A DNA stretch of 60,210 bases, counting the filler, from Sphacelaria rigidula (taxonomy: Eukaryota), in NCBI GenBank assembly GCA_964200075.2. It is 7 parts of 7 records of this genome, joined end to end, with 100 filler letters (N's around TTAATTAATTAA, not from the genome) between each part and the next. Parts side by side here need not be neighbours in the genome. Positions count along the whole stretch, not along the records: positions 25,849 to 34,364 come from CAXNAA020010913.1; 6 more parts are not named here. One strand, written 5' to 3'. This document shows, in pieces, positions 8,517-51,923 of this stretch (position 1 is the first letter of the stretch; each line of letters opens with the position of its first letter). The notes beneath the pieces were generated by a model. It searched no databases. It was not told the DNA's origin and was given only the letters and a program-made list of their open reading frames with translations. The translations under genes were made by a program, and so were the position numbers.

Positions 8517-8616
8517 NNNNNNNNNNNNNNNNNNNNNNNNNNNNNNNNNNNNNNNNNNNNTTAATTAATTAANNNNNNNNNNNNNNNNNNNNNNNNNNNN
8601 NNNNNNNNNNNNNNNN

Positions 8617-16873: not shown

Positions 16874-17899
16874 CTGCAAAAAGGGAGAGGGAGAGGGGGA
16901 GGGGAGGGGATACATTACCAAGAAGAGAAACAATGGAAGGAAATATGATAACGACAACACGATATTCCCGTGAAAAATAATGATGTTCCCAGAGAACGTG
17001 CTGACCACTACGTCTTGTTTGACTGACACCGCCATAGCCCCCCCCCCCCACGAGGGAGCGGGAGAGGGGATAGGGATGAAAGCATATTTGCATGGCCCAA
17101 TGGACGCTGCGAAAAATATGAAACTGCGATTTNNNNNNNNNNNNNNNNNNNNNNNNNNNNNNNNNNNNNNNNNNNNTTAATTAATTAANNNNNNNNNNNN
17201 NNNNNNNNNNNNNNNNNNNNNNNNNNNNNNNNCCGGCTGATGCGCCCACATACACCGAAAGGTGTAGACTGGCGTCCAGAATGAATGGGATGACAACACA
17301 CAACAACAACACATCCTATCTTGCAGACCACCACGCCAGATACCACTCGTTCACACAGCAAAGCAAACCCCACACAACTCATCCTCAGCTACCACCGCAA
17401 CCCTGCAGCACAGAGCACGAGTTAGGCATGATGTGTTTATTTATTTATTGCGAAAAGTTGAGCATCTTTGTTCATGATGGGGATTGGGGACGGAACTGCA
17501 TGATAGGGTGGACGACCGACTTGCGTGCACTCATGGACAGTGCAGGTAAGTACAAAACTGCACGTTGTTCAAGCCCTTTTCACGTGGCACTGTAAGCAGG
17601 AAGTATAGATAGTCCTGTGATGTCTGCAATTCACGTTGCCTGCTCCTCTTTCACATCCCACTGTATGAAACCCGCACACCCACATTCAGGCACACTATAT
17701 ACATACAGCGCTGACAGTATAGAGTAGTACTGTACTACTATAGACAAGCGAATAAGTACCGCTTCGCGAATTTTACTGTCTTTTTTCGATCGAATTCTTG
17801 CAATTTCGCTAGGACCCAACTCGCGAGAAATGAACGCACTCGCTCAATTCAATTCCACGGCACTTTTTGTTTAGATCGAAAAGTTATGTGTTGAGACGG

Positions 17900-18260: not shown

Positions 18261-21153
18261 GATACAGGTGGGGCAGCAGAGTGGGTTTGCGGGCTGCTTC
18301 ATGACATGGATCTACCTTGCTACTCGCACACCTACTACGATATATCAGCGGCGAAGCCGGAGCTACGAGCAAGGTAATTCGATCAGGTCTACGATTTAGA
18401 ATGATGGAAACTTGTATCGGAACCCCTCAAACCGACGGACAGGTGGGTGGCGAGATGCATATGCCGATAAGAAGGCGACAGTGCGTATGCTCAGTGCAAC
18501 CAGCGATACTGTAGTGTACAGGTATTGTACCTTACCGACGCAGAACACCATCCATGCTATCAGCCAATGATTCCATTTGCTGTCAGCAAAGTTACAGCAG
18601 AGTAGGGTATAGCGACGTTCTCTGTATATGCAAACACCCTTCCTTTTTCCTCCCTTGAACACCACCTGTTAGTAACTGCCATCTTGATATGATTGTGTTG
18701 TGTTGACAGTTGTCGGCGAAATAAACATTCCATGATTGCTGATCCGATTTGCCCGCCTTGCCTGTCATCAGCGTGTACACCGTGCTGGAGCCTGCACCTG
18801 GCGCGGACGGAAAGGAGTGCCTCGTCTTGACCACATCCCAAGACCTCTCTGGCCCGGCAGAGCAGTTGCTAGATACACCTACATTCATGGGCTTGTCGAT
18901 ATCCTTGAGCATCCTTAAACAGCTCAAGAACAATGTGGGATGGATGTCGAAGCGCGTGATTCTTCTCATTGTGGATGAGCAATCGCAGAGCGTCGACGTG
19001 AGCCGGTTACATCTTGGGGTGAAGTCGTTTGTGGATGACTACCACCTTCACACCCTAGATTTGCTCAAGAGGTGACAAACGAATCTAAGACCGCGTCGCC
19101 TGCATCTCGTAGATTATGTTATGTCTCGGTGCGATCATGTACGTCGTCATGAAACGTGGTAGTACTTGATCATGTCATTATCTTATTTTGGTGTTTCCGT
19201 AGTAGGTCTCATCCCCTCGGCCGAACCAAAACTCGAGTCACTGTCCCGCAAAGGTTATTTGTACGCACACTTACGGGTCTCCTCTGATTGACATAACCTG
19301 CCTCTGTATCTCACGTTGCCTCCACCCCGAAATCCTCTTGACCACCGCTATGCAATCACTTTTGTCTACTATTCGCTCCAGGCACCAAACGGACTCGACC
19401 ACGATGCGCTCCATTCGCCACAGCGGCGTGATACGTGCTGCGATCTCCCTAGATCTCACCGGTTCATGTCTGCCGAACACAGTTCAGCTGCTCACTACAG
19501 GCAAGTTCCCTCCCCTTCTTGCGTTTATTTTTGCATGAACATCGAATGCTGCTCTAGGTGTGCTGGACCATGCGACGACTCGAGAAGTCACTCGTCGAAT
19601 TCCACGCGAAGTGCACATGCCAGCGCTCGGCAAGTACACGGCTGACAGAATGCAGTCATTTCGCCGTATATGCCGGTATTGGCGACAGGTATAAATGGCG
19701 AACTCCCTAACATGGACCTCCTGAACGCTGCAGTACACCAGCTAGATCGTCAGGGAATATCCGTCGTGCTCGACAGGTGCTCTAGTTCCTTGGACAGAAC
19801 CGGGCATCACTCGTGTGCAGATGCGGCGGCAGCGGCGGAAATAGCCGTGTCCCGTCTCATTCCAAGAAGCACGAGACGAAGCGCCCTTCAAAGTTACTTA
19901 GATCGGTTGTTCACCATGCTTGGATTCATGGGGTCTGTGGCGATGGGGCCAAGTGGGCCGCATGCGCACTTCTTGCGTCACAGCATCGACGCTTTGACGA
20001 TTAAAAGTGTCGACGAGGGTGGGCGCGGCGGTATGGAGAAGGGCGCCTGTTTGAAGTCACTTCGGGGTGGCACCGGGGCTTTGTTGAGCCTCGTCCGAAA
20101 TGTCTCCAACCTGGAGGAGGAGCTACATCATTCGTTTTTTGCTTACATCATGTTGTCCACCAAGGCCTTCGTGTCTATAGGTACGTGTTCGCATTTATAA
20201 TGATTATCCGTTCGGCCGTACTATCCCCTGTTTTTCCCTGCTGCCTGCCCGCACATGTTCATGCCGTATCGAGTGCATGCTGCAGAACCCGATGCGTGGT
20301 GTTGAATATTCAGATTTTCTTGGTACTCGCACACCGATTTTGGAACGAACTACAACACTCAAATTTCACATTTCATAGTCGCCAGATTTGTAGTTTTCAT
20401 TCCATCTTTTATGCGCTGCTACGACTTTGTTGAATACTCTCCTTTTTTTTCCAAACATTTGCAGGTGAGTACGCCTACGCCATGGTCCTCTTGCTCTTCC
20501 CGCTAGCGATGCAAGCCGGGAGGCTCCCCCGCCTGTACAGGGACAACACGCTCTTTGGTGCCGTGCTCATTGTCGGGACGTTCGAAGGATTTGGCGCGCT
20601 ACTATTGCTAGCAGTATCTCTCGCACCTCAAGTATCGGCAGAAGTGCTTCGTTGGTACTTGAACGTGGCAACCCTTATGGGGTACCTACTGGTGGTGGCC
20701 GTGCGGTTACTCGTCCATCCCAGACGTTCAACATCACCAAGACTGGTCTCAGAAACAAACGCCCTCCTGCAGTGGGAGGGACCTATAATGGTCATCGCTT
20801 GTATCATGGCGTACTTCTGTTCTGTAACCGCGCTGCTGAACTGGCCACTGGCAGCATTGCTTGCGCTTACCCACGGACCCATGGTGGTCATGGCAAAACC
20901 GCTCCGCTTATCAAATCCAGGTAGTTGGTGTACGTTACCCTGCATGTTGTTTAGTATGCCGGCATGTTGGCCGTTGTTGTTTGGTGCCGCCGCCGGCCGT
21001 GGGTCCGGCGGGGTTGAGGTTATTTTGCAGTGGCTTCGATGGTACAGGGTGTCGGGGCTGATGAACGTGCCTCTCCTGTGTCTGCTTTCCATCCCAGCGC
21101 ATCTGACAGCAGTTTTCGTCTTGATCAGCCCCCAGGGTGCCAGGAAAAAATAA
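18261..21153 (+). CDS. GAA1: GPI transamidase subunit GAA1/GPAA1; 5' exon(s) not identified
   Basis: Exons 18261-18373, 18772-19071 (SVYTVLEPAPGADGKECLVL, WMSKRVILL), 19382-19500 (GVIRAAISLD), 19689-20180 (GINGELPNMDL, HAHFLRHSIDALTI, RNVSNLEEELHHSFFAYIM..FVSIG) and 20465-21153 (EY plus multiple TM segments, ending RKK*). Confidence 0.92.
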
Positions 21154-21375
21154 TATCATGTTCAAGTTGGTCAATGAAATGTCACGTACTGAAAATACAG
21201 TAAAAACAGACGACCGATGCGCCTTGCTGCGGTATCACCAATACGAAGCTACAGTGCTCACGGTCGCTACTCGTTCAAGACACTTGCTCGAGGCATCTAT
21301 CTAGTTTCTCCCAACACACCAAAACACGAAACAACGTGTCAGGGGCTGGAGCGCATCTTCCCAAGCGTCGCTTGT

Positions 21376-23874
21376 TCATGTCGCTCCTCTCGACAAGTTC
21401 TTGAAGCCAATGCCTTTGCACGAAACCAACACCTGCAAAGCATTCAAAATTCAAGCAGGCACACAAGCGCAGAGTTGCGATTGACCCGAGCAGTATCAAC
21501 GTGTCAAGAGAGCAACGAAGTGGGTCAGGAAAATGGGTGATTACGGACAAACGGTATAGCGGAAGATGCACCGCAAATTCAATACTTTGATGATTGTACA
21601 CATTCCATCAAAAACTACTGACGCGTTTTGCGCAGTCTGTGCGGAGCAAATTTACACCCGAAAATGACAAATTCAGAGGTGGGCCCATGGCACGCTTCGA
21701 TACTCGTCGACGTTTGTCGGCATGCGCCCACTGGTCGATCCATGTCTCACCGTTGACGTATGAGGGTCTGGTTTAAGTCGGAAGTATGCCCCGAAGAAGT
21801 CCCGGAGATGTCGAAGGTACGTGACGCTGTACTGGGTAAGCTTGCCGATGCGGATTCGGCTGCAAAAAAACACACAGAGCAATGGCCGTGGGAGTTGCAA
21901 GAGTTTACATTCAGGGACACCTCGCGATACTCAGCGCAATAATTCATACAGTTTCACCGCAGCATCCGTTAACACATCGACTGTCGTCAGTTATGTATGC
22001 TCGTCAGATACACGTCGTCGCTGATGTTCCGCTGGGCAGCTCAATACATGCCTACGGCCCCGCGGCGTACTTTCACATGTCGGTGAAACGGACGCACTCT
22101 CCACATACCATAGTCGACACATGCATGCGTGTACACACCTCACGTCCTCCGGGCAAAGTACCATGAGCAACATCGCCAAGCTTTGATGAGACGAGTCCAC
22201 ACAACCACCGTTTCTGTTCCAAGGCAAGGCAAACAAGAGAAATCGAAAGACAGCCCTGTTCAGATTACTTCCAGCCCTGACAAGTAGTCGCATTGCAGTC
22301 AAGATCGTACCGCACTAGGACTGTTGTTTCGGCTCATCTACATCTGTACTCGAAGAGGCCAGAATGCGCCTTCATTTGTAAGTATACTTTACTACACTGC
22401 TCACGCCAACACAGCTTCTTGATGATGCTCACACAAGTATGTAACGTTGAGTGCAAGATTGGAGATTGGTATGTCGCGGGCTAAGGTGGGGGGTATCGTA
22501 CAAGACAAAGGCGGGCAGAAAGAAATGAAATCTGCAGCACTTACTTAATTTCCTCCAGGATGAGCTTGCTGCCGAGATTCCCCAAATCCTCAGGGAGAGT
22601 GCCCTGTGTGCGTTCACCCATGAGTGCACAGAGGTAATAAAAAGAGGCATACCAAAAGGCAAATGAGCCACGATGTTCAGCGATACACCCAATCCATGGT
22701 GTCCACTGAGATGAATTGCGATGCGAAACACTCAAGCATTGCCTGTGCCGGAGACTAATGCGGATTTTGGCCATGTCGTTCGGGGCACAAAACTTCACCA
22801 GGACGAGTATACGACTCGTGCCGCCATCATTTTGCATTTTCCTTCCGATGAGGTCACTCCTTCGAATATAGGGAAACAAACAACTTGAACAAGTGTCTTC
22901 TGGCCCTTCCGCGTCGTTTGTCGCGTGAGAGGAGGGCTAGACGGAGGGTAACATTTCAAAGTGACTTCACACAGGTGTCGAGATTTGCAGAAGCCACCCG
23001 TGAACCTCACGGTATACACACATGAAATGGTCGGTTCAGTAGTGAATCTAGACTGGTACGTTCAGACTCCGCAACTGCTATTGTAGCAGTCACTTCACAG
23101 GTACCGCAGTTGCATCACATTTCACTTCAATACCTTCTGGAGCTTGACTCTATAATCACGTGCCGTCAATGCGATACTCTGATAAACTCGAACAAGACAC
23201 ACGGAGGGTACACACACAATCGAGGGTGTGTGCCACATCTACGCGGTACGCCGGGAGCAAACAGACGCAGGCCGGTCTTCACCACGATAGTCGGCTCACC
23301 TTCTCCGCTGCCGTTTCAGCCACCAGCATAACTCCCGTCGTAGACTCCGCCACAAGACTCAATGCAAACCCCGGCGACTCTCCTCCAGTTTTGCCCGCGT
23401 TGTGATCCGTGTGTACCCACACGTCCGGGAGGAGGCGGTTGAGCAGTCCTTCAATCATCAAGTGCGGTCAAGCGTCAACCCCGTGAGCATATTCCAGCCA
23501 CGGACCACTATCAGTGCAAGAGCGTGATCGATTTCGTTTTTTTAATCCCGAACGAACCCAAGATAAAGGGCGGGAAACGAAGAAAAGCCATGACTCTCAG
23601 GGCCCGCTGTACCGTATTCTATACATGGCGTTAAATGCTGACAATGACACTCTCTCAACGGCAGCAGAAACGCGGCAAAAAAAAATCGCTCACCCCTGGA
23701 AGATTCCGCAACGCGATTGGCTATTTGCGGGGAAACCTTGGTGCAGTATGCGTTCCCTCGTATTCGCTTAATCAGGCCCGGGTCTGTGAAATCGATCGGT
23801 TTCAGCTCCCTCACGATGGGACATCTGAACTCCACTATCCCCCCCCCTCCTGGCGGAGCACCTCGCCGCTTCAC
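21376..23874 (-). CDS. RCL1: RNA 3'-terminal phosphate cyclase-like protein Rcl1 (18S rRNA processing); 5' partial
   Basis: Exons 23874-23694 (RRGAPPGGGGIVEFRCP..IKRIRGNAYCTKVSPQIANRV), 23448-23300 (LLPDVWVHTD..SPGFALSLVAESTTG), 22603-22545 (LPEDLG..LEEI), 22213-22139 (GGCVDSSHQ..PEDVS), 21859-21751 (RIRIGKL..LRHLRDFFG) and 21432-21376 (VSCKGIGFKNLSRGAT*). Phases are consistent. Confidence 0.95.
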
Positions 23875-25000
23875 CTGCCATTGCCCACATTAACCCGTTC
23901 GGTGTGTGCCAATAAAATAACGTAGTCACACGCGCGTATTCGAAAACATCAGTCGCTGGAACGACAGCATCGACCTTGCTTGTGTCCGATATCTTTCCGC
24001 GATTTAGTCTTTCCTGGCACCAAACCCGAGGAGGGAGTTTTTTTTTGCCGAAGAGGTGTTGTCCCCGATTATCGATGGCAATTTGGAGGCACTTGTCTGA
24101 TCAACTGTGGATGTGAGAGTGTATGTCGACGTGAAGAACAGCAATTGAGGAACACCAACAGAATGAGTGCGCCCTGTAATAATTTATCGGGCAACATGCA
24201 GAAGGACAAGCAAGCAGCGTCCCGTACACCAAGGGTACTGCCGTTGAGCGCTGCTTCTACTAAGCATAGACTGAGGCTGATGCACCCCTCATCATGTAAA
24301 CCTCAACACTCGCAGATGATGGCAACTTTGATACCACAAATTCCCGTTGTGGTCACCGTATCATCGTGACACACGAAGAGCATACTCGTAAGCGCCACGT
24401 CCTCTTCACAGAAACAACGTGCATCGAGCAGTGTGCTATGCGACGTGGTGGCTACTGTGCAGCGGTGGCAGTATACTAAGCAAGGAATGATTGCCCCACG
24501 CCACAACGGCGCAGGCCTTTGTCAGCCGGTCACAGTTTTGTTACTTGTTTGCACAGCAACAGCAATATACTGAGGTCGCTCTAGCACGCCCCTACATGAG
24601 CTCATCAGCTCTACTGCGTTGTGCGAGATTAGTTTTGGCTTCGTGTGTTGGCGATATATACATACATTTTCGGCAAAGGAGTTCAAAACGAGGAATGGCA
24701 TGATGGAACTTGGAACTAGGAGCCGAATCCATTCTTTTCCGCGTTGTGTGTGTGATATTATCTCATCTATTCTGGACGCCAGTCTACACCTTTCGATATA
24801 TGTGGGCGTATCAGCTGGGGTCACACAGGAGGCCAACACATGAGCTTGTTCTTTCTTTTGTTTTGGTACTCCACATTTCTTCTGCGGTGCTTGCCTTGTT
24901 TTTTATCGCGAGATGAATTCAGCGGTTCCTTTCCCTCGTCGACCTCAAAGGCGAATTTTGTGTACCCACAACATATTAGCTCTTCACTATTGGGCATGGT

Positions 25001-25103
25001 GTGAGAAAAAATCCCAGATCGGGTGACTGCACCGAGATTCGAACTCACGACCCAACCGTCAGAAGGTTCAGAGGTTACCACCTGAGCCACCGGGGCGACC
25101 AGG
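25001..25103 (-). mobile_element. tRNA-derived SINE-like element
   Basis: The minus strand has an A-box-like TGGCTCAGGTGG and a B-box GTTCGAATC but no complete cloverleaf. A second copy lies at 34465-34535. Confidence 0.75.
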
Positions 25104-25957
25104 TTGTGCTTTCTTTAGTTCCCGTAGGTCACCGGTACCCGCCGCAGAACGCTCCAGATAAAAACGCGTGGTCTTATAAGGCACTGGGAAACGATTGGAG
25201 ATGGATTCTCGTCCACCGGTGTACCAAGCCTTGCTATATGCCATGGATCACAGCGGTGTACAACTGTCTCATAGTAAAGTGTTTTTACAGCCAAGAGTAC
25301 GTCTTTGGTTTTGCATGACAGCAGATTAGAGCCTGACATAGATATACCCCCTTATACTATATGATATTTCATATACCTTAGTCATGTTTTTTCTGAGGGT
25401 ATATGATATAAAATACTTGTATTTTTCATTAATTTTCATCAGATACCCTATATGGAGCTTTTTCGGCAAAATATGACTAAAAGGGTGTATGATATGTAGT
25501 ACACGGTTCCCCTTCGGCCCTTCGGGAGGTTGGTACGGGCCTCCCGGGGGTGACGCAAGTCGAAAGTATAAAATATACTTCGTACGAGTATGCCTTTTCA
25601 GTGCGCTACAAAAGAAGGGGTGGGAAAAATGCCTTGCTGGCAGAGAAAACTCGGCAAAAGTGGTGAACATGTGAAATGATACATGTACATAATACACATG
25701 GGTTGAATGAAGGGAGAAAAAGCGCGCGAGTCATCGCTTTGTCCGCTTNNNNNNNNNNNNNNNNNNNNNNNNNNNNNNNNNNNNNNNNNNNNTTAATTAA
25801 TTAANNNNNNNNNNNNNNNNNNNNNNNNNNNNNNNNNNNNNNNNNNNNGCGTTTGAGGGGGTGCCGGGCCATGTGTCCGTGGGATTTGGGTGGTCGGTCA
25901 CTGGTGCCCCCCCCCCCCCTTCGTGTCATGCGGGCCTTCGCAAAATACCACCGACAG

Positions 25958-28900
25958 TTTGGCTGGACACGCGAGCCGGGGATGTTTTTCCTTCGGCAGG
26001 TAGCACTTGAGCAAGAAGGGGGCGGTGAGGCTTTTCTCCGTGACCAGCTGCGACGCCCGCCGCTGAGTCTTTTTCCTTGGGCTGCCTTTATCGATGATCG
26101 TTTGTCTGCATTCATGGCCGGCGACAGGCTGCCTCAGGTATATGGCGGTAAAATATGTGGCCACGAAAGGTGTTTGACCATATCCTTGGAAAAGAGTAGA
26201 CGCGTCACGCCCTTGTCTTTTTTTGTCTGATGCCACACCTTGTCCAAGGTCTAGTAGTCGACATCTGCCGAGCCATCTGGTGCTTCACAACGCATAGAAG
26301 TACGTTCTCGTGTGACTCCTACTAAACACTACGCCTCCTCACTCAGGCAGGTGCGTTCTACAGACTGAAGACTAAGGCGATAAACGCGTTGAATCTATCG
26401 AAGACGGCGAGGATGTACAACCCACTGACATTTCATGTATTCCTGACCCTAGCACAGAAAATGATCTTAATACGGAGCATCTGCGCATCAAACTAGTCGA
26501 ATGGACTTGATACACTCCAAACCAACGATTAATAAGAGGTATGACCGTTGTACTATTTCGATTATCTTGCGATTTACAGGGTTCAACTGTGTTCTACTTA
26601 CCCGACCTCTCCCTGTATATTTCGCTTTTCAACACAGGTAAACCCACTCGAGCGGATCCCTTTCTTCCACGAGTGTCGAGCGGCTGTGTCCGCGTTCATG
26701 AACACAACAGACATGGGGAGACTGCAGCAGGAAATCCGAGTGTTGGCCGACAATGCCGCAGCCCAGGGTGAGAGGTAGAAGGCGCTCAAAGGCGACAAAT
26801 GAGTTTTGTTGCAGAAACTTGATTTCGGCGGTTGATGGCGGTAAAAACGGAACAAATATTCATCTGTTTGTGCTGCCTTTCTAAGCAGGGTCATCTACCC
26901 CGACGCTAGTGGCTGACTACATACGGATGCCGAAGTATTGCCGCCTCTTCCCTCTCTTCGCCCCTCACATGCTCCATCTCCTTGAGTCAATGCTTTGAAA
27001 GCGAGTAAACGCAAACCGTGAGTTCGTCTCCAACCTGCGTGCGGGTGATAGCAATGGTTCGCCCAAGCACGAAGTCCCTTCGGTGTTGTAGAAAGTACAG
27101 CCGATGGTCTAACAGCTGCAACATGCACGAATCCCTCCCTTCCCGCGGTGGAGGCTTATTGTACGCGTTTGGTGGGGAGTCATTGTCCTCTCCTTCCCGA
27201 CTGGTGTATTGTCTATTTTGTGCGCCGAAAACGTCTTCTGTGCTGTTCGCTGAATGTGCAGGAAGTGCACACTCGAGGGCTCTGAAGGGGGGGCTTTTGT
27301 CAGCAGTGTTCCACGAGGCAAACCTAGTCAAGGTACGACATACGAGGTTGATGGCGGTTCGTGTGCGGGGTCTATTTCTTGAGTTCTATCCTCATGAAGA
27401 AGTACAGTTATGAGAACGATACATTAGTACCTCTCAAACAGAAATACCTGTCTTGACACCTGGGCATGGCAGGTAAAAATGATCACACGGACCGCAATCG
27501 CCATAGAACCCGTGCGTCTCAAACCGTTGGCGACTCTCGTCCCCTAAGGATAGCGCTTCCCGTACCTGAACAGTTCCCTTCGATGATTGCTTCATGGCGG
27601 TTTTATTTCATGCGAAAATCTCATCATCACCTCAATCGTAAACAATACAGGCGATGGTCAGCCACGAAGGAAGCAAGGAAGAGCGTCAGCTGTCGAGAGC
27701 GAGGGATCTTCTGGAAGCATGGCTTTTGGACGAGCCAACACCCCCATCCGATGCATCGCCCCTGACCTTCCTATCATCAGAGGAGCGAAGGCTATTCGCT
27801 TCCGTTATCGGTGTAAACAGCACAAAATTAGGTGCTCTATGTTTACGCTCTAGTGCATTTATTTAAGCTGCACGCGTGTCCATTAGTAAACGTCCAACGC
27901 GGATGTTCTTTGTTCATCGAAATCTAGCAACCTCAATTCTTACACAGACACTTCGACGTCTTGACGAATGTCTCTCTTGTCTCGCTTACCATCGATTGAA
28001 TCGTTGAAACAACAAAATGACTTCTGAACCAGCTGCAACTGGTGACAGAGACGCAAGGGAGGCCCGTACCGCTCGAGAATTGCTTTATATAACACCACAG
28101 AGCTCTTTGGACGGTGTGCTTTGGGCGAGGCTTCTGGTGCATGTAGCCGCAGCGGCTATGTCAGCGGATCCAATAGGTCCGATGGCCATGTTTTGGGATA
28201 TCATCGCCCGTCCTGAGCGTTTGCGTCAAGGTGCGTGCACGGTTTGCGCGATTTTTTTTATTGAGCCTGGAAGGGTATTTGAACTTGACGAGCGACATCA
28301 TATCGATTATTGAAATATCCGTTTTTCAATGGTAGCGTCATCCGCCCGAAATCCGGGTCAGGGTCGGCGGTTGTACTCGTCGCGGTTTCGGAAGCCTTCA
28401 TTTTGTGTGAATTCACAGCACTTCTTTGCTTGTCCAAACTGTCGTCTCCCGATTACGTGTTCTAACTTCATGTACGTGCCACTCCCGACCGGTCGCCGGA
28501 CGTTTCAGCTTTCCTGCCAACCATGGACTCAGGGGTGACCCCTGAAAAGGTGGGTTCCGCATTCGTACTGAGTACTCGATACCGTGGCTTCACTCTTCGG
28601 CACGGTCGAGTGGGTTCGTACCGTGTATTACGCCCATGAAGAACCTTACCCACAAGGCACCTTTGAGGACATAAATTAGACGCGGAGATCTTGTCGAATC
28701 CTAAAAACATCGAATTGAACATGGAGCCATATCGCTTCGGATGGACATGGCCAGCGCGATCACCACGACGACGGAAACGCACTGAGCCTTATTCATTTCC
28801 GAGTACATGGTGCTGGAACCTGTCGCCACGAACGTGCGACACGACTTGGATGGATGTTATTGTCTGAGTGCTCTTTGCTACACCACCGCAGATGTCCGCG

Positions 28901-31900
28901 ATGGGAGCACAGCATTCCTTCACCTACCACCAATGTGGATGCGGGTACATCTACGCCATCAATAACTGCGGAAGACCGGTGGAAGCAAAAGTGAGATGTC
29001 CCTGAACACTCCCATTTAGTAGTACAAACCTCACGTGAAGCGTGACGAGTGTACGATTAGATGAGACCTTGGGGTTTCGTCGAGCCATTATATGGAATGT
29101 TGGTGCGATCTGGACTTCTTCACGAAATTCAAGGGAGGCGCTGAAAACACTATTTTAGTCTAGGGCTGGGTCTGGAATTGCGACATAGCGCTGGAAAAAA
29201 TACCCAAGAGTCCCCATTCTCGGAAAGCATATCCTCTCCGTCCACAGAAAAATTTAGTGTGTGCGCGATGAGAGTGATTGGAGACCGACACCGTGCTTAA
29301 CTAGTGAACTGTGCAGATGTGTAGCTGCCGCACCGTAGAATCTGCATTTGCTGCGCGTCAAGGTTATATTATGCTGAAATTTCTAAGCACTTCTGCACCG
29401 CCGTGTTAGAAGGAACTGGGAGTGCACAATGAAGGTATCAAGGTGCTGTAATAGTAGCTTGTCTCCGTGCCCGTGTTCATCGCTGTTGTTGGGTTTGGAC
29501 TTCACCAGGTGTGCCCTGAGAAAGGCTGCGGGCGTGTTTTAGGTGGAACGAACTATGAGGCGGCCCAGCCTAATTCTACCAATGTAAATCTTCCAGAGGC
29601 CAGGGGCTACTGTCTCGACACGTTAGACGAGGTAATGCGGGAATATGCACAAGGTTAGATTATCTTGTTCCAAGGTCCAGCCGTTTTGTACCTACGGAAG
29701 ACTGACAGTAGTGTTCATGATATGTTTCTCGACAATCACAGTTCGACGACCAACAAAAATGGGAACGTGTCCATGTCGTGTCGATGCTATTGCAGGCTTT
29801 CTTGCGTTAATATTGGCCGTAGTTCGAAACTCTCAGCAAGACAGTCTCGGTGCAACGGTGTACAGCAATGTGATCGCGGGGCGCATCATCATGTTGTTTG
29901 TATTCACCATGATCAAACAAAGGATGTAGATAGATATGGTTGGAGAGCGATTGAAGAGTGTATTGAAGCGGATATGACTGTGAAAATCCGGGATGTGCTA
30001 GTTGCCGAGTCGGTTGATCTTTGAGTGCGTCGTGTGACGTACGATTGACTCTGCTTCTGGATGAAGAGCCCAAACGTCAGAAACATAGATTGCAGTCGTC
30101 GGTAGGGGAGTTGGCATGGGTGACGACTGACTGCTGTACCTTGAAGATTCATATTCTTTAATGATTTGGGTGATGACAGAGGTGTGTTTCCGTGTAGTGT
30201 GCGCTTTCGACGAAGTGTTCCCTTGGGCCATTGTGCTCCCCTGTCAGTAGGCAACATCGTAGAGTTGAAACTAGCGAAGCCATTTCATGAGGGGTTTGGG
30301 TTCAACACCGGTGGCAGCCTTGAGATGCTACAGTCCTCGTTGAGCCAGGCATGCTAGTGAGTGATGTGTTATGATTCGGCGAGTGTGCATGAATTTCATA
30401 TTTTCATCCCACATCTGATAAGATTGAGCTGTGAGACGAGCGGACATGTTTAAAACAAGCACATGCAGGGATCAAGGTCGCGTTTGATTCATTCCTAGCG
30501 ACATCGCCGGGCAACCGACGTCCTTGGTCGGAGACCTAGGTCACCTTATGACAACGGCCCATCAGCCAAACGAATTGGCGAAAACTCAACGCCGTTTCAG
30601 GCGAGAGTAAACGAGTGGCGGGTATCAATTTTATTACATTTCTTCTTATACGCAAGATGTGGATACGAGTTGCCTCACTAACGTTACCTCGGGCCGGCGC
30701 TCCATCTGCCAAACGCCCTTTACCTGAATCGTGGCGACCAGAATCGTGATGTTGTCCTCATTGAAAAAACCTCGTCACCTGCCTTCGACCCGACCACTGC
30801 CAGCACGGAGTTCGCACGGCAGCCACACGCGACATGTCGGCCGAGCAGGTAGCCACAACGCGCCTCGTCATGCACCTCGCTGGTATTGCTGCGGCGGCTG
30901 CCGACGGTGCCGCGTGGGCCTCTAAAGCCCGTCAAATGCTCAACACGGGACACGTTAATGAGAGATCTGGGGGGGCAGGAGTGATCGAGATATTCTTGCG
31001 TGGAGCACAAGGCGATGCTGACGCACTTCGGCGTTTTACTGGCAGGAACAATGAGCAGATGTTTATCGGGGTGCACTTGTCGTTACTCGGCGAGGGGGCG
31101 CCCAGCGCCAGTCGTGATCATGGTGTCACTAGGTCGAGGTGAGATACCTCCATCAGGCATATTCTTGGATCGGATGGTAAACAACTGTCTGAACGGGGGT
31201 GGCAGGACTCCCCATCGTCCTTCCACGCCCTCTTTTTCCTCCCCTACTATTTGCTGCCCCCCACGTACTCCTCCCCTGAGGTGGTGTGTTGTTATGTGTT
31301 ATGCCTAGTATATTCGTACTCATGGCTATATCTCTAGAGGTGAAAAGATAGAGCCTGCGATTCTTATCGCCATGGTTGGTGACCTTGATACCTGAGTTTG
31401 GCTCCATTTCTTTTCGGCCTCGCGTGTTGAGTGGACCATGGGGCCCTGCCTCCAGTGGCCCGAATGGTCGCCTACGGCACCGAAATGTTTGAGGTCAGCA
31501 TTATTTTCCTCTTTTGTTTGCTTTTGTTTGCTTGGCTTGTTTTTGTAGTGCGTCTGTGTGAACTTTTTTCTGTGTCGGATTTCAGTTTTCTTATTTCCTG
31601 AGATCGCTTTTTGGGTAGTTAGCCTGTGACCACGGAGGGCGTCCGCATCAGTTACCCAGTACAGAGTACTGTGCAGATATTTGAACGTGTTTGACACGAA
31701 TGCAGCAACGACAACATCAACAACAGCAGCACAATACAGTACCAATAGCAATGAGTGCCTTAATGCTATAGCATGAGAGTGCTTCACGCAAGTGACGTTT
31801 GCTTGTGGCGAATACGATGTTCGTCAGACCCGGCCGGTTCGTCTGCCTGACCATCTAGAGAGTGGACGTGACCGATGCAGAGGCGACAACGCTGACACAA

Positions 31901-33983
31901 TGAATTTTGCCGGTGGCAAAGTGTAAGAATCTATTGGGAGAGGGTGCGATGGCATGGCAAAACGTTAGTGGAGAACATACTGGTACGCGACATTTCGTTC
32001 CTTCCTTTTATGTCCCCTCATTTTGTCATTTCCGTAGATCCACCGCGGTGGAGCACCTGCAACAAGAAGAAGGGCGCACTGCTTGGGAAACCGTGTTTTG
32101 CACTGAGCATCTTTCAGTCGTTTCGGGCGACCCAGAGGAAGTTAACCGAAGGCTAGCAACTGCGGCAGACGAGCTTCGACGAGGCGGTGAGGGAAATGCC
32201 TTCGCCATGGAACTGCTAAGCTCGGGAGGAGTTCAAACGGTGGTAAGTGCTGACATCAAATGCCGACTACGGCGAGGGCAGCCGCCAACGCTGTATTTCA
32301 AACGTGTAAACGCCGCTAGTGTGGGAACGGCCAACGTTTTGAACAAGCGTGTTAGCAGCACTGGTTCAACTTGTACCCGAGAGAGTGAGAGGGTTCCTTC
32401 ACCTGCACATGTTGTGTGAGCAAGCCTCTCGGCATGTGTGTGCAACTTGGTACGTCAAATGTCGGTTGAGGACGAAGTATCAATGGGCGGGACCTTTCAG
32501 GATATCCAAGAAATACTTGTCTGTTCAGCGAACACGGCCAACGGTATTCATAGGCGCAGCAGTGATGTGGTGGTCCAAGAGAGTTGATGCTTCGAGATGC
32601 TATTTGGGGTCACGCGGGGGTTCATCGATGGCGATACCCACTCCTGCATGTTCTCAGTTGCTCGACCATGGATGGAGAAAGTCGAAAAACCCGAAACTGT
32701 GCAAGACAACGGTCATAAGCTTTCCCTCGAGACTTTGCATGTTGAATATGTGTGGTCGTGGAACGCACGAATTGTGCGGACTCTTCATTTCCATGTGCCT
32801 CTCGCATGTATTTGATTAGATTGCTCACAAACTCCTCGCATTTCTTCCCAACCTTGTGCATATTTTACGAATTTACTCAGCAACCGGGGCATTGAAAAGC
32901 GACTTTCCCTGTGTATCTGTGTCACTGACCATACTCCAACATGGCACGTTTCGACGTGTTATACCTTGAACAGCACAAATATATACTTCGGAGTATATGC
33001 ATATGTTGAAACGTACCGCAGTGTGTACGGAAGTGTGAAGAAAAATTGCGGGGTACGGGGTGGAATTAATAGCTCAGTAATATCACGTGAAAACCTGTCC
33101 GTATATCAGATGAGCCGTGTCCCGAAGTTGCATCAGCCACGCAAATTCTTGCGTTTACAGACGCGCATGCCATACACACTTCGTACCTTTCTCGTAGGCG
33201 AGTGGCACAAATCACGCATGTAATTGAAAATTCCATGATGAGAACACGTGAAGGAGGGACCAAGAGTGTTTGCACAAACAAGCATTCATTTTTCGGCTCT
33301 CTAGTTCGAAGCTACAAGTAATCGCATCGTTCCGAGTCTCAACATACTGATACCAACTGGCACTAAGAATCAAACTTGGATTTTGGAAGTATTGCAACTT
33401 CGCAAGATCTCAGAAATTTGGAATAGAAGGTTGATTCTCTGCGTCACCTGGCATCAGAGTACGTCGGGGTGCGGGGCCGTGAGCTCACCAATAGTCATGG
33501 ACGATAGATAAAAGATTATCAAGCGTACGAGTGCTTGCGCATGCCGTCGGCTGTTGTTGTCAATTGTTTCAGAAGGGTATCGTCGTTGCTAATTTCTCCC
33601 GCAGATACCGTTAACAAGTGGACACTACACTACCACGAACAGGTATGCGATGAACATCGCGAGGCGGCCTCAAGACTACGATAATCGTTTGTTTGGACGA
33701 ATACTCGACCCCGTTCGCCTCGTCGCACGTGTCGATGCGGTATGTGCACTACCTTTTACAGGAATTTGCGAGCACGGGGAATTCAACAGCCAGCCCGCAA
33801 GCGAGATTGTGGGACGTCCGGCACTCTATTTCTCTGGAAGGGTTAAAGGAAGGTTTCACGGCTGCAGGTACTTGGAAGACAGGGGACGGCAACCGAGCGT
33901 GGCCACTGCTGGAGACAGTTTTCGACGACGGTCGTCGCCCCTTGCTTCTTGCGCTTGCTCGCTTCCCGGCTGCGCTGCAGTGG
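25958..33983 (+). CDS. RNF213-like E3 ubiquitin ligase, internal fragment spanning the E3 region with RZ finger; partial at both ends
   Basis: Phase-compatible exons 25958-26137, 26638-26767, 27262-27332, 27651-27831, 28033-28230, 28509-28549 (AFLPTM), 28892-28990 (YHQCGCGYIYAINNCGRP), 29509-29631 (CPEKGCGRVLGGTNY..RGYCL), 30804-31138 (RDMSAEQVATTRLVMHLA..GDADALRRFTGRN..VHL), 32038-32242 (GRTAWETVF) and 33762-33983 (LWDVRHSIS..WPLL..LARFP). This is the same motif order as around the RNF213 RZ finger. Confidence 0.82.
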
Positions 33984-34464
33984 GTACGTTTTTTTGTCTG
34001 TTGTGAAAATAATCACCGACTGGGTGCCTGATGTGTGACAAGACGGCAGTCGAGAGTCATACTTGTCTTCTTCAACCCGATCTGGATTCATATTGGTTTC
34101 ACTCCTTTTCTAGTATTACAGTATGGCTTGCTTGCGCAGCATTACGCCGTGAATACATCACCTTTCATTTCTCGACAAGGAAAAAGACAACACACTTCAA
34201 CAGGGAATCCTGAAACATGGGAATGGACGTTTTTCGTTGGAACGAGACCCGTTTGGAGGTACTCGAAGAAGTCAGGCGAAAAGGTACTTAATCCCCCCAA
34301 AGAGAACGCACCTCCACCACCGACCCACCCACTCGAACCCCCTACACCAACCCAACAAATGCGANNNNNNNNNNNNNNNNNNNNNNNNNNNNNNNNNNNN
34401 NNNNNNNNTTAATTAATTAANNNNNNNNNNNNNNNNNNNNNNNNNNNNNNNNNNNNNNNNNNNN

Positions 34465-35949: not shown

Positions 35950-38693
35950 ATGCACTCAGCCATTGCCCTGCTGTACGTCGGAGCCGCTACGACCGCAGTG
36001 GTTGTGACCGGCCTGCGAACAACAACAGCATATCCTACTACGGGTACGAGCTTTCAGTGTCAGCATTGCTGTCGACCGTCACCCCGCGCGCACGCTCGAC
36101 CTCGAGACAGCTCTGTCTTCAACAGCAGATCCGCTGAAAGTAGTCATCACCGGTCGAGAGGATGCAACGTGTGGGGAGTTGGGGTGGTGGGGTGTAGTAG
36201 TAAGGGAAGACGTTTTTCTTCGCGCCGGCGAGCGGCCGCGGCGGGTAATGATGATGATGAAAAAAAGGACAATCAGGATTGGGTGAGTTCGCGAGCGAGG
36301 TGACTTGGTGGACGTAGTCAGATTTTGAAAAGTAGTGGCTGCTATGAACAGTTCGTGCCTGGCGTTTGACGTCACTGGAAACTGTACCGGTGTTCAACTT
36401 TTTTGAGATCACCGTGCGGTTGTGAGGATTTGAAGCATTGTATGTATGGAGTTACTCGTGGATTGTGCAGCAGAGATGAGTTTCTTTGGTGAGTACAAAC
36501 TTGGTTCCACCGAAGACGTTTTCCGTGTTGGTTGACGAGTGTGGCGATGCATAGTGATGGAGAGGGTGTGACTTGCAGTTTTCGTGTGGGCAAGACCACC
36601 ATGGGTCGGTTGAATCTCGCGTATCTTTTTTCCGCGGTTACAGCACTCCCCTGTTGATGTTCCCGGGCAGCGTGCAATACACGAACGCCCTTGCTTGCAA
36701 TGGGTGCTTTACCGTTCTCTATTCAGGGGGGGGATGACTATTCAAAATACGGATACCAGCCGGACTACGAGATGCAAGACGAAAACTCCTTTTCCGACCA
36801 AGCGACGCTGGACGAGTGGCGACTTCAGAGGTTCGTGCGCTATTTTTTCTTGTGAGGAAACACAGTGTATTTCCGTGTCGATACGTGAGGGGGAAATGGC
36901 GCCGGACGAGATGGCAGGCTCAAGCTAGCTGTGCACAAAACAAATGGCTTTTCCTTGTAAATCTTTTCCTCCACAAGCGATGTATCAAAATAGACGTGCG
37001 CTTGCTTGCTATGTTTGTATGCCAAGCAACCGGAGACTGTCAACTCGTCCGTCCTGAGGAAGGGGGTGCTCTTTTGAGTACGATCAACTGATTTTGCTCT
37101 CGTCTCTCCCCGAGATGCTCATGGGTGTTTTTGGAAGCGAGAGTGGTGCGGTATGAAACACTGACACCTTCAGCAGTCAGATTGCCTGACGTCTGTCCAA
37201 TAATTAAGCCGCACGACAATAGTGTTTTCGGTGTCTACAGTCAGAATATTCTCTTGTGTACAGCGTCCTGTCGGATGGTGCCATCAACGCGTTCCCTCCC
37301 CTGCGCTCCAGGTTGCTCACGAACGACCGGTGGCAGTTCGGCATGTACGGGAAGCAAGCGGCTGGTGATTGGATCGGTGAGGCACTGTCATGTGGGCATC
37401 CTCTTGTTTCTTGTGTAGGTAGTCTTGTCACATCTTACCCGCCGTGCATTTCGCTCTGAGGTACGCTCTGGAGCAGAACGAGAGAAACAAAAAAGTGGTG
37501 TGTGTTGCGTGTTGCTCTTGCTCGAAGGATCGGAGCGCTGCCACTTTTCGGGTGCGTTTGTCAACTTCGTTGCGCAGACCAACTGCACATGGTGTTCAGG
37601 TACATGCTGCCCTCAACCGTCCGAGTATGTGATGACGTCTCATACAATCGCTGTTACTTTTCGTTCGAACCGCTAAGGGGCACGCAGATGTTCCCACACC
37701 TGTCACGCGTAGCGTAGCATGAACCAGGGCTTTTCGGCATGTTACGCGCCCTCAAACGGAGTTGTTTCGCGTGTTGGTGCGCCTGTATGCTGTTGCCTGA
37801 CATGGCAGGCAGTTGGCAAGAGTACGTTGCGACGGATCTAGACGTTGGAGGGGACCTTGACGACGACGAAAGCAGCGGCGGCGCACCGATGATTGGTCTG
37901 TTGCCGGGGAGAAAGTTCGTCGCGAATACCCGAGTCACGAGAAGGTACGCAGGGTCACGTTTCACTCAGGGGTCGAAAGAGTCCGTCGTGCTTTGTCGTG
38001 AGCCGCGGTGTCGCGCGGCGATAAGGCTTAGTTTGCGGTGAGTACTGCTTGTTTGCTGGGGCGGTGAAGTGGGACCGGTGCATGTATTGACGTCGGTCAA
38101 TGTCAATACATAGCCATGTTTGGCAGACATTGAACACCAGTGGCGATATATTGCCACGTACGCTATGGTCATTATACCCGTAGAAATGTACATTCCTCCA
38201 TGTGCTGTTGCGTTGAGAGCTGGTGCCCACAGGGGGAGCAACAGCGTACGCCGAGCAGGAAAGAGCACTTTTCTTCTCGCAAAGCATCTGTGACCGCACA
38301 CTTAGATATCAGCCGATGGCACGGGGCGGAACGACTTTTTTTTTTCTTTACATTTTTGCCGCGATTGTTTTCGGCAAAATGAAAAATTGCGCGCGTACAG
38401 CGTTGCCCTTAGATGCCACTAATGAGCTCGAGTTTAAAGAGAAATGAAGCCGAAATGCGTATTTGTGTCTGAAGCGTGTACCGCTCACCCGTAGGCAGGT
38501 GCTGCTTTGGCTCGGGCTTGTGTCCCCGTCTGGCGAACACGTTTCTACCGCATCAATACATGCATTTGTTTTGCTGAAGTATTGAATATATGTCGTACTG
38601 ATAAAATCGACCGGTGCACAGCCCTATCTTGCCACGGCATCAATACATCACAACGTCTTGCTAAAGCATTGGTGTATTGACTCCGCCAATCTT

Positions 38694-42980: not shown

Positions 42981-44789
42981 NNNNNNNNNNNNNNNNNNNN
43001 NNNNNNNNNNNNNNNNNNNNNNNNTTAATTAATTAANNNNNNNNNNNNNNNNNNNNNNNNNNNNNNNNNNNNNNNNNNNNATGAGATAAGGGGCTCCTAA
43101 CAATTCTTACCTCAGAAAGTATTTCTGTACCCCTACCGTAGCATCACTCGTCTACGGTGTAATAAATTTACACACGCTGTTGTGTTCTCCGACGCAAATG
43201 ATGACAGGCGTGTGCTTCTCGTATCCGTCTTCTACTCTTTCAAAACGTTTGACTGCCCACATTTTGTGTTCGTAATCTGTTGAACCCGCACCATGACCGC
43301 TTGGAAAATGATTACAGAACGAGGCTCCGGTGTCCATCTGAGGCCGCTCCGAGGGTCAAAAACGCGCCCTCTGTCGTCCACCTTGGACGCGTGAATGCGT
43401 GTGTGTGTGACACAAAACACGAACATGAACACCGGTTCACTATTGAAAGCACAAGCCGCACATGGTGATGGGGTGTGGAGGGTAAGCTGGCCATACTCAC
43501 ACACGAACGGCGAATAATGTATCTGTCGGAGGGAAACGAGATAGGGCACACAGAGCGCCCTTTCGGCACTACGGTTTTCTGTTTATGCTGCGCTGCTGAA
43601 GCAGCTTCTCTGCGGGAACTAGAGGGCCACAACACTGCAGACACACGGACGTGCAACCACACCGCACCAACGGCACACGCATTTTTGATATTTAATCTAC
43701 ATATCTCTTGGAAACCCACGAAATAAAAACGGTAATTTCTCGACCAGTTCGACGCCCTCAACCTTCACGAAAATTGAACGATCAACACGAACCTTTCCTC
43801 ACCCCCATACACAGCGATGATCACACCTAGATTTTCTTGACATACAAGTATCACCCTGAAAAAAAAAAGAGAAGATGAGTGAAAAAAAAACCATACAAGC
43901 GAAGGTGATGTCGACACCAACGCCTCGATTTTTGTTGCAGTACCATTAACATATCGAAGATCCTAAATGCAAAGTACCGCGGGTATTTGCCCTCAATATC
44001 ACCCGACGTTGTGTCACCACACAGAGGGGGCAGCAACGAGCACTACCCATCGAGGCTTAGAATACAGTACAGCACAGTACAACGGGGATATTGCCGTTCT
44101 CCTGTCCGGCCGGAAAGATCACACAAACGCTACAAGAGCAGCAAACGAGAAACACTTTCGGGCCGAACGAGCGCTCGTCTGTCAAGTACAACACCAATTC
44201 TGCTGAAACAGACCTCGTGCTGGGCTACACCATACGTATCTTACTGCAAGCAAGGACATCTTCGGGGTTTCCCGCACCAAACGTACCATGCCCTAATCCC
44301 CCATAACGATGTGATGTTTTTGAGCCATACCGAGCGTATCATACCGCTAGCAACGATTCGTGTGGACGATACTTCACACACAGTTGCCGCAAAACATTAT
44401 GTAGGGCTACTTCGCGCACACTCACCCCTAAAACCACCCGAAAATCTCCATGAACCATGCATCTCATACAACTACGATATGCTTCGGCTGTGCTGCACTC
44501 ATTGACATTTGCACCGCTAGCGACATGTGTCTATATTAATGTATACATAAATATATCGTATCATACCTGGGGCTATTCTCCGCATATTTTTCCCGCAAAC
44601 CCACATGAAGAGCTATACATGCCGTACACATCGAATCATATCTGTGCACCGTCTGCGTCCTACTTTACCGCCCACGGGATGAAGAAAAACACTAACTCAC
44701 TACCGTAGAAGAAATGTGTATATAAGACCCCTGTGTGATCAGTCTCAAGAGTTTCGAAAAGTCATCCTCCGGGGGTCATACTCCCGATG

Positions 44790-50818: not shown

Positions 50819-51923
50819 CTGTTTAAGGCCGTTCCGAATTATTTCACGGTGAAGTGGTTGTTTCACAGTTCGAGATTCGCGCGAGGGGTCATTATCCAAC
50901 ATGTGGTAGGTGTATATGTTGGGGAAGGAGGGGTACGGCTGTCTGTCACATGACTCATTATAAAGCATTGGTTGCCGATCTCAGCATAGAAACTGCCACC
51001 CATGCTTATTATTACACGAAAGTACGAATAAAAGAGATAGTTCGCTACTTCAGTGCACCAGCGTATTGGCATTTCTACACACATGCGTCATTTCCTCGCA
51101 CAATAAACTCGTGGGAGGCGATTGGATACTCGCACGAGTTGTTGTGAAACAGCACCGCGATGAATGAACGGAAAATGGGCTATCGCTGCATACACGACGC
51201 ACCCACGCCTTTTTTTTGGGGGGGGGGGGGTGTCTTCAACATTCAAGATACCTGGATCATGACCGTAGGTCTCGGGGTTTTGGCGGTGAACACACATCTG
51301 TGATCTGCGGCTGGAACGACAGAGTATCGAACGTTCTACAGTAGGCTACATCTCATAAGATCCGATAGCAACTGTCGGCTTGTAAGTGTCTTACTTTTTG
51401 GTGCTTTTTGTTTTCCCCTAGCCCCAAGGGTTGATCGCCGGACACGGGCTGGTTGGAGGTTTGCGTGGTTGGTTCTAGCAGGTAACTGCGGTATCGTGGT
51501 AAGTCGTGAGATATGACACACGAGTATCACCCACGGGGGGGGGGGGCGGGGCCGATGGCGGCGGGGAGGGGCGGGTAGACACACAAGGTAGAAACNNNNN
51601 NNNNNNNNNNNNNNNNNNNNNNNNNNNNNNNNNNNNNNNTTAATTAATTAANNNNNNNNNNNNNNNNNNNNNNNNNNNNNNNNNNNNNNNNNNNNTGCCA
51701 GACTGTCAGGATCTTGTATCCACTAGCATTGCTACTGTCTGTACGGGGATGTTGCCCACTTGTCGGGTACGTGGGGGAGGGTCCATGGCAGAACGCAGCG
51801 GTCGCGTGAGATAGGCTTGACCTTGTCGAGCTTTTCGGACCGGCAAACGTTCAGCCTAGACCCTCACATATATGGTGGGGCCTAGATGTTGTTTACTTTC
51901 TGGTTTTCTGCGAATGTTCATCC

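Follow-up and report, generated by a model that had tools for sequence, protein, structure and literature searches.

An RZ-type zinc finger with tyrosine at both key histidine positions in a multi-exon gene of the alga Sphacelaria rigidula

In two human immune ligases able to ubiquitylate non-protein substrates, the active site is the RZ finger, first recognised in 2021. In human RNF213 the finger lies near residue 4505 and follows the spacing C4505-x3-H4509-x6-C4516-x8-C4525-x2-C4528-x8-H4537, where C4505, H4509, C4525 and C4528 build the zinc site and C4516 and H4537 form the catalytic pair, according to the available part of the source (PMC11549300). In the excerpts of the literature at hand, ZNFX1 and mouse RNF213 share the spacing of human RNF213, the zinc site of ZNFX1 being formed by C1849, H1853, C1869 and C1872 and its catalytic pair by C1860 and H1881. 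According to the same excerpts, the C-H-C-C zinc site is fully conserved across aligned RNF213 and ZNFX1 sequences; this site and the Cys/His pair are described there as conserved, and as required in the mutants tested. Mutation of any zinc ligand of RNF213, the histidine included, is reported in these excerpts to abolish activity, and the second step of both ligases is stated to need the histidine as general base. As to this last residue, the excerpted work finds that the H1881N change abolishes the RZ-dependent activity of ZNFX1, and that mouse RNF213 H4483A has its activity lowered more than 10-fold, not abolished.

The gene studied here comes from Sphacelaria rigidula (assembly GCA_964200075.2, CAXNAA020010913.1). 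All positions refer to the window, the whole stretch of DNA that was analysed (60,210 nucleotides of joined parts, filler included). The gene has a real RZ-type finger, as the original prediction had proposed: exon 28892-28990 alone matches the Pfam profile ZnF_RZ-type (PF20173) with 29.6 bits and E 5.4e-7, above the curated cut-off of 27, the scan covering 33 exon-coded residues and the match profile positions 3-31 of 54. With read-through, the score is 30 bits. Exon 29509-29631 by itself has no Pfam match at E<=10, so that its assignment as the second half of the finger depends on the splicing and on the exact spacing; a six-frame search of the window with a regular expression for the second-half pattern gives 2 hits. 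The key residues are the following.

28934..28936, + strand: Cys at the human C4505 position, predicted first zinc ligand, by alignment to RNF213 (available part of PMC11549300)
28940..28942, + strand: extra Cys two residues on, a candidate replacement zinc ligand; also in the related protein P0004, as C-E-C-G-Y
28946..28948, + strand: Tyr (TAC) at the zinc-binding His position (human H4509), by RNF213 alignment; X1 and X4 DNA contigs without variant
28967..28969, + strand: Cys at the catalytic nucleophile position (human C4516), x6 after Tyr as in human, by RNF213 alignment
29512..29514, + strand: Cys, predicted zinc ligand (human C4525 position) from spacing, x8 from the catalytic Cys as in human
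29527..29529, + strand: Cys, predicted zinc ligand (human C4528 position), x4 instead of x2
29554..29556, + strand: Tyr (TAT) at the general-base His position (human H4537), x8 past the last Cys as in human

The finger therefore reads C-x3-Y-x6-C-x8-C-x4-C-x8-Y, and the spacing of its key residues equals that of human RNF213 apart from the second cysteine knuckle, which is longer by two residues. The C-x3-H ... C-x2-C arrangement of the C-H-C-C zinc site is lost, the His position being taken by Tyr and the second knuckle being C-x4-C. The free loop Cys six residues past the His position is present in N-C-G-R-P, aligned to E-C-G-R-P of RNF213, and the general-base His eight residues past the last zinc Cys is absent, with Tyr in its place. 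Three of these features had been noted from the sequence alone: a kept catalytic Cys (NCG), a first His replaced in a CGCGY pattern and a last His turned into Tyr (TAT, 29554-29556). At this last codon, where TAT had to be told from CAT, contigs of X1, X4 and X6 carry no variant, and the key codons are identical across contigs from three studies. X4 record 10 differs at 12 positions, every one of them listed and outside the key codons; its sole difference within the RZ exons, at 28975, is a synonymous Arg change.

Like the RZ of RNF213, the algal finger is recognised by the Pfam RZ profile, keeps a spacing that is identical except for one knuckle and has the C-G-R-P-x-E loop; in a weak profile alignment to RNF213 chains (E 1.5) this loop is kept and Tyr falls under His. 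It differs from RNF213 in having Tyr at His4509 with a new Cys two residues earlier, C-x4-C rather than C-x2-C, and Tyr at His4537. ZNFX1 carries a finger of the same family and, in the available excerpts, of the same spacing, whereas both of its histidines are replaced in the algal one. The RBR/RCR ligases HOIP and MYCBP2, which have no sequence relationship to the algal finger, are also described in the excerpts as placing a free cysteine nucleophile in a domain that binds zinc, but as depending on a nearby general-base His, where the algal finger has Tyr.

The finger is part of a multi-exon, transcribed algal gene with at least 11 exons on the + strand, a frame open for at least 596 codons across 11 exons and GT-AG borders at 10 of 10 introns. 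X6 and X7 are contig sets whose RNA label is a guess; they were taken to derive from transcripts, since GT-AG introns present in the DNA contigs are missing from theirs. The DNA contigs, those of X1 with 0 differences and those of X4, run collinearly with the window through the introns.

25958..26137, + strand: first known exon; X6 record 17 and X7 record 20 pieces 25953-26134, AG/GT borders, open frame
26638..26767, + strand: exon; X6 record 17 and X7 record 20 pieces 26635-26766, borders checked
27262..27332, + strand: putative 71-nt exon, from a 70-nt contig stretch without listed placement
27651..27831, + strand: exon; X7 record 20 piece 27649-27829, then 30 unplaced nt, donor GT at 27832
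27832..28032, + strand: intron kept in some transcript contigs, with in-frame stops at 27864-6 and 28005-7
28033..28230, + strand: exon preceding the finger; X6 record 18 and X7 record 22, its frame continuing that of the upstream exon once spliced
28509..28549, + strand: 41-nt exon with the AFLPTM motif; AG/GT borders, X7 depth 1.06 = 41 x 7.36/284
28892..28990, + strand: first half of the RZ finger, 33 codons, knuckle C-G-C-G-Y and catalytic loop N-C-G-R-P; Pfam PF20173 and transcript contigs
29509..29631, + strand: second half of the RZ finger, 41 codons, C-x4-C knuckle and G-G-T-N-Y, also CPEKGC; X6 record 19 piece 29509-29629, 0 differences
30804..31138, + strand: exon; X6 record 19 and X7 record 22, borders checked
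32038..32242, + strand: exon; X6 record 19 and X7 record 23, borders checked
33762..33987, + strand: last known exon; X6 record 19 and X7 record 24, frame still open

The three finger exons (28509-28549, 28892-28990 and 29509-29631) have AG/GT flanks and one shared frame. X7 record 22 (729 nt) places its positions 1-198 on 28031-28228 and 462-729 on 30802-31069, and the intervening 263 nt amount to 2+41+99+121, that is, exactly these exons. At a depth of 7.36 and in 284-nt bins, the X7 depths of 1.06, 0.47, 0.83 and 2.31 are the same observed and expected, and the remaining bin gives 2.15 observed against 2.10 expected. Spliced transcript contigs of an independent study thus join precisely the exons originally proposed, and X6 record 19 gives 29509-29629 directly. 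Further upstream, the window 27262..27332 is the only one within 26790-27600 that combines AG...AG/GT borders with a fitting length and an open frame. Intron 27832..28032 is read through by X6 records 17 and 18 and X7 record 21, and would be skipped by X7 record 20, since the latter has a 30-nt (k-1) overlap with record 22, which starts at 28031. Ahead of the first known exon the transcript goes on for 572 nt or more, and beyond the last one the contig extends by 202 nt. A search by its last five letters for the end of the upstream exon gave none within 21150-25850, and codon-usage scans for further 5' and 3' exons gave weak candidates only (such as 21793-21921, 22532-24 and 37781-38029), which were left out of the model.

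A search of 1.84 billion protein representatives with the 37-residue exon query returned 5 matches at E<=0.001, P0004 being the only true RZ; the four others lack an RZ domain and are repeat proteins, PKD-like in the case of P0001 and P0003. P0004, a protein predicted from a 2250-nt contig of a public assembly, has 149 residues, 53% identity over the exon and a Pfam RZ E of 1.3e-8, and shows the first half of the finger only. Its similarity covers the same 33-residue block and stops exactly at both borders of the exon. Its knuckle, C-E-C-G-Y, has the same C-x-C-G-Y pattern as the algal gene, which argues that the variant is not a one-off and that a second lineage or paralogue also combines the gained Cys with the exchange of His for Tyr. 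Before the catalytic Cys, P0004 has the canonical Glu, whereas the algal gene has Asn. Among the longer proteins, up to 2000 residues, a homologous-protein search with the RZ exon gave no candidate, the same search with exon 30804-31136 gave 2866 candidates with none at E<=1, and the profile search A2 recovered P0004 itself only, among 6 candidates. Related-locus searches of metagenome contigs, viral contigs and prokaryote genomes found no relative, and literature searches on the RZ finger turned up neither such a variant nor an algal RZ protein. Of the 36 listed differences between two strains, 7 in the flanking exons are non-synonymous and 4 synonymous, a count that gives little indication of constraint on the sequence beyond the finger.

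In the ORFs and exons searched, the surrounding protein resembles neither known architecture. A Gaa1 gene of the same strand has its end at 21150 (window coordinates), so that no more than about 4.8 kb is available before the first known exon, too little for the six-AAA core of RNF213. No Pfam match to AAA, RING, helicase or NFX1 domains was obtained in 150 ORFs of 8734-36300 and 94 further ORFs/exons, and among the same 244 there was no Miz-like domain, no six AAA+ dynein-like core as in RNF213, and no SF1 helicase with NFX1-type zinc fingers as in ZNFX1. The + frames of 21150-25960, where upstream exons are undefined, contain no RING-like Cys/His pattern. When the exons before and after the finger, short and thus weak queries, were compared by phmmer with the PDB, which includes RNF213, RNF213 did not appear at E<=10; the ORFs of the RZ exon and of exon 28033-28230 and the AFLPTM exon gave no match, the second half of the finger gave a chance C2H2 finger only (E 7.8), and exons 30804-31136 and 33762-33986 gave chance matches only. 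Unlike RNF213, then, the algal protein has no room for AAA modules and no detected RING, E3-shell or CTD similarity, and unlike ZNFX1 it has no detected SF1 helicase, NFX1-type fingers or Miz/Z-RING. No E2-docking part was detected: in the exons compared, RNF213 similarity does not extend past the finger, and the ORFs and exons searched gave neither a RING nor a Miz-like match. Of the RNF213-like E3 with a variant RZ that had been proposed, the RZ finger stands, and the RNF213-like ligase finds no support beyond it.

The finger is best read as a remodelled RZ module, probably with four cysteines at its zinc site, that sits in a new kind of protein, and both readings already raised for it, altered chemistry or an inactive paralogue, are live. 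We tentatively favour, at a rough probability of 0.45, a real multi-exon algal gene whose mid-sized product is neither an RNF213 nor a ZNFX1 orthologue and has as its only recognisable domain a remodelled RZ that keeps an altered ubiquitin transfer. This is preferred because PF20173 matches above cut-off on exon-coded residues only, the RZ spacing and the loop Cys are kept, splicing, open frame and key codons agree in the way described, P0004 shares C-x-C-G-Y, and mouse RNF213 H4483A retains some activity in the available part of its source. Zinc would be bound by the four cysteines of C-x-C and C-x4-C, the extra Cys replacing the lost His as a ligand so that the small beta-sandwich could still fold. 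The loop Cys would accept ubiquitin from E2~Ub as a thioester, and the second step would be changed: slow, restricted to good nucleophiles, or aided by Tyr or another part of the protein. Counted against this reading are the absence of two residues that the tested RNF213 and ZNFX1 mutants show to be required, the undetected E2-docking part, the second half without its own Pfam match, the restriction of P0004 to the first half and the little constraint on the flanks.

A non-catalytic RZ descendant, which would keep the fold, with or without ubiquitin or E2~Ub binding, and act without transfer as a pseudo-E3, adaptor or decoy, is the less likely of the two, at somewhat under one chance in three. 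Since in the excerpted work zinc-ligand mutants of RNF213 lose activity and ZNFX1 H1881N loses its RZ-dependent activity, the finger is, by the rules tested there, one without two required residues, the zinc-binding and the general-base His; the undetected E2-binding domain (244 ORFs/exons) and the fast-evolving flanks point the same way. On the other hand, the loop Cys-Gly-Arg/Lys-Pro-x-Glu is kept in the algal gene, P0004 and RNF213, which is not expected of a purely structural module, and the extra Cys resembles a compensation that saves the metal site. It is rather unlikely, though not far-fetched, that the finger represents an undescribed RZ subtype, with a four-Cys zinc site and a Cys/Tyr pair in a stand-alone protein without AAA, helicase or RING, forming a new E3 architecture with different second-step chemistry or substrates. 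A decaying pseudogene or assembly artefact is very improbable: the stop-bearing intron 27832-28032 kept in some transcript contigs, the flanking exons without homologue in protein and metagenome searches and their near-neutral non-synonymous/synonymous ratio would fit it, but 596 codons open over 11 exons have a chance of about (61/64)^596, near 4e-13, the exons are joined precisely, contigs of three studies agree in sequence and P0004 has the variant knuckle at 53% identity. That the gene encodes the C-terminal end of a genuine RNF213 orthologue, a giant AAA+ E3, is the least credible of all, despite the RZ finger and the preceding AFLPTM motif (according to the original prediction, RNF213 has AFLPTMP at this place), given the about 4.8 kb upstream of which Gaa1 sets the limit, the absent AAA and RING matches in 244 ORFs and the exons outside the finger without RNF213 match.

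The RZ finger is thus found outside the RNF213 and ZNFX1 architectures as well, and an expressed, natural double His-to-Tyr change with a gained Cys offers a ready test of which residues are needed for its fold and its chemistry.

The variant RZ zinc finger of the original prediction was assembled from three exons, and all three are found in the sequence, each bordered by AG and GT, with a single reading frame running through them when joined:

28509-28549, + strand: exon with the AFLPTM motif (41 nt)
28892-28990, + strand: exon with the C-G-C-G-Y and N-C-G-R-P motifs (99 nt)
28946-28948, + strand: first Tyr codon, TAC
29509-29631, + strand: exon with the C-P-E-K-G-C and G-G-T-N-Y motifs (123 nt)
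29554-29556, + strand: last Tyr codon, TAT

Four contig sets were aligned to the window. Two studies supplied the DNA contigs X1 and X4, which are collinear with the window and keep its introns; a third supplied X6 and X7, whose RNA label is a guess only and whose contigs skip introns. Record 22 of X7 aligns to 28031-28228 and to 30802-31069 with 263 nt in between, and these 263 nt (2+41+99+121) are exactly the three RZ-region exons. Depth bins calculated from the X7 depth of 7.36 (1.06, 0.47, 0.83 and 2.31) match those observed, a further bin being expected at 2.10 and observed at 2.15. In X6, record 19 joins 29509-29629, with 0 differences, to 30802-31136, 32036-32241 and 33761-33987. X1 has 0 differences across 28505-31642, and none of the 12 differences of X4 record 10 (all listed) hits a key codon, the sole one inside the RZ exons being a synonymous Arg change at 28975. 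On this evidence, the objection that the last Tyr codon is really CAT, or that an alternative splice applies, fails: neither occurs in the contigs, and both TAT and the splice are upheld.

Exon 28892-28990 alone (33 residues) matches the Pfam ZnF_RZ-type profile PF20173 with 29.6 bits (E 5.4e-7), above the curated cut-off of 27 bits, its residues 4-32 aligning on profile positions 3-31 of 54. The ORF that includes intron read-through scores 30 bits, so the read-through contributes almost nothing. By itself, exon 29509-29631 has no Pfam match at E<=10; it is taken as the probable second half of the finger from the splice and from the spacing across it, C-x3-Y-x6-C-x8-C-x4-C-x8-Y. A two-sequence profile aligns weakly (E 1.5) with four RNF213 chain sequences in the PDB; in this alignment the zinc His lines up with the first Tyr, and the catalytic loop C-G-R-P-x-E is retained. 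Profile match, spacing and splicing together confirm the variant finger. Within its second half, C-P-E-K-G-C-G (29512-29532; C-x4-C plus Gly) resembles the first knuckle of a C2H2 finger such as ZNF410 (PDB, E 7.8), a likeness taken as chance.

Most homologue searches (proteins of up to 2000 residues, metagenome and viral contigs, prokaryote genomes) were empty. An exhaustive HMMER search of 1,835,955,588 protein representatives gave five matches at E<=0.001, four of which were discarded as repeat proteins without an RZ domain. The fifth, P0004, is a singleton cluster of 149 residues from a public assembly contig of 2250 nt. PF20173 matches it with E 1.3e-8; it shares 53% identity with exon 28892-28990 and bears the knuckle C-E-C-G-Y, versus C-G-C-G-Y in the RZ gene, with a canonical E-C-G-K-P loop. 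Its similarity begins and ends at the exon borders, and in both sequences the shared Lys is followed by Val-Arg, as expected from reading through a GTGAG donor; P0004 thus probably represents the homologous exon of a different genome, with introns at the same positions. The C-x-C-G-Y of P0004 argues that the paired change, gain of a Cys and first His to Tyr, is inherited rather than a private mutation.

In published descriptions, the metal ligands of human RNF213 are C4505, H4509, C4525 and C4528, with C4516 as nucleophile and H4537 as general base (PMC11549300), and the same spacing is found in mouse RNF213 and in ZNFX1 (C1849/H1853/C1860/C1869/C1872/H1881; bioRxiv 10.1101/2025.10.14.682297). 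Compared with this spacing, all intervals of the RZ gene are equal except for two additional residues in its second knuckle; it has Tyr at the zinc-His position of RNF213, whereas the loop C-G-R-P-x-E is as in RNF213. Published mutant studies report that every zinc-ligand mutant of RNF213 is inactive, the His mutant included, that mouse H4483A lowers autoubiquitylation more than 10-fold, and that ZNFX1 H1881N loses RZ-dependent activity.

The Cys gained next to the missing His, also seen in P0004, looks like compensation (C-H-C-C to C-C-C-C), and the catalytic loop motif is common to the RZ gene, P0004 and RNF213. Because of these two features we tentatively favour, with a probability of roughly 0.45, a folded four-cysteine finger whose loop Cys would still accept ubiquitin, the second step being altered or weak. 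The inactive zinc-ligand mutants of RNF213 and the loss in ZNFX1 H1881N would instead fit a non-catalytic RZ derivative; this main rival is somewhat less likely, and the compensatory-looking Cys and the retained loop speak against it.

A pseudogene or artefact is a very improbable reading of a gene whose 10 introns are all GT-AG on the + strand and whose joined frame stays open for 596 codons, open at both ends. Its other exons are:

25958-26137, + strand: exon, from transcript pieces
26638-26767, + strand: exon, from transcript pieces
27262-27332, + strand: exon, the only fit for an unlisted 70-nt contig stretch
27651-27831, + strand: exon, from transcript pieces
28033-28230, + strand: exon, from transcript pieces
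30804-31138, + strand: exon, from transcript pieces
32038-32242, + strand: exon, from transcript pieces
33762-33987, + strand: exon, from transcript pieces

Beyond these known exons, X7 record 20 extends 572 nt further upstream and X6 record 19 extends 202 nt further downstream. X6 records 17 and 18 and X7 record 21 run through intron 27832-28032, which has two in-frame stops; X7 record 20 appears to have it spliced out, judging from 30 unaligned letters and a k-1 overlap with record 22. With the intron retained, the upstream frame is closed, and translation could begin at an ATG at 28017, giving a shorter finger-containing protein. Between the window and X4, the finger exons show one synonymous change; among 36 listed differences out of 73, 7 non-synonymous and 4 synonymous ones lie in the flanking exons, which are thus weakly constrained. 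Exon 30804-31138 (335 nt) holds 4 of the 12 X4 differences of 28505-31471 (2 synonymous, 2 non-synonymous), a higher density than in the adjacent introns.

The intron between exons 30804-31138 and 32038-32242 contains, at about 31245-31812, an apparent dispersed repeat of very high abundance, with contig depths of about 7,000-118,000 (X1) and 3,000-83,000 (X4), numerous alternative joints and, at 31609-31620, loose ends rich in T; it may be a short, poly(A)-tailed retroposon on the minus strand. At 25908-26087, near a run of 12 C, X1 and X4 contigs differ from the window by an A inserted after 25941 and by T>A at 25959, and this is where short contigs stop; the assembly may be uncertain shortly before the first known exon. 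Paired 44-base N runs recur every ~8.6 kb (8517-8616, 17133-17232, 25749-25848, 34365-34464, 42981-43080 and 51596-51695), one pair a short way before the first known exon and another a short way after the last; their appearance suggests masking, not gaps in the assembly.

The least probable reading is a true RNF213. Three ORFs at 18743-21150, on the same + strand, match Gaa1, a GPI transamidase subunit (E 7.5e-6, 4.6e-27 and 0.012; profile positions 5-495 of 497), and probably form a separate upstream gene; its end at 21150 would leave the RZ gene at most about 4.8 kb more upstream DNA. No AAA, helicase, NFX1, RING or other domain scored above threshold in Pfam searches of 150 ORFs in 8734-36300, nor among a further 94 ORFs and exact exons, and scanning the upstream DNA for RING-like patterns gave none. 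With phmmer, the exons before and after the finger did not retrieve RNF213 at E<=10 from the PDB, which contains it. The original prediction also takes an AFLPTMP motif to stand before the finger of RNF213. On these grounds an RNF213 orthologue was rejected: of the original interpretation the RZ finger variant stands, and the RNF213-like E3 ligase is not borne out. Limited upstream room and the domain and phmmer negatives point to an RZ-bearing protein of different architecture.
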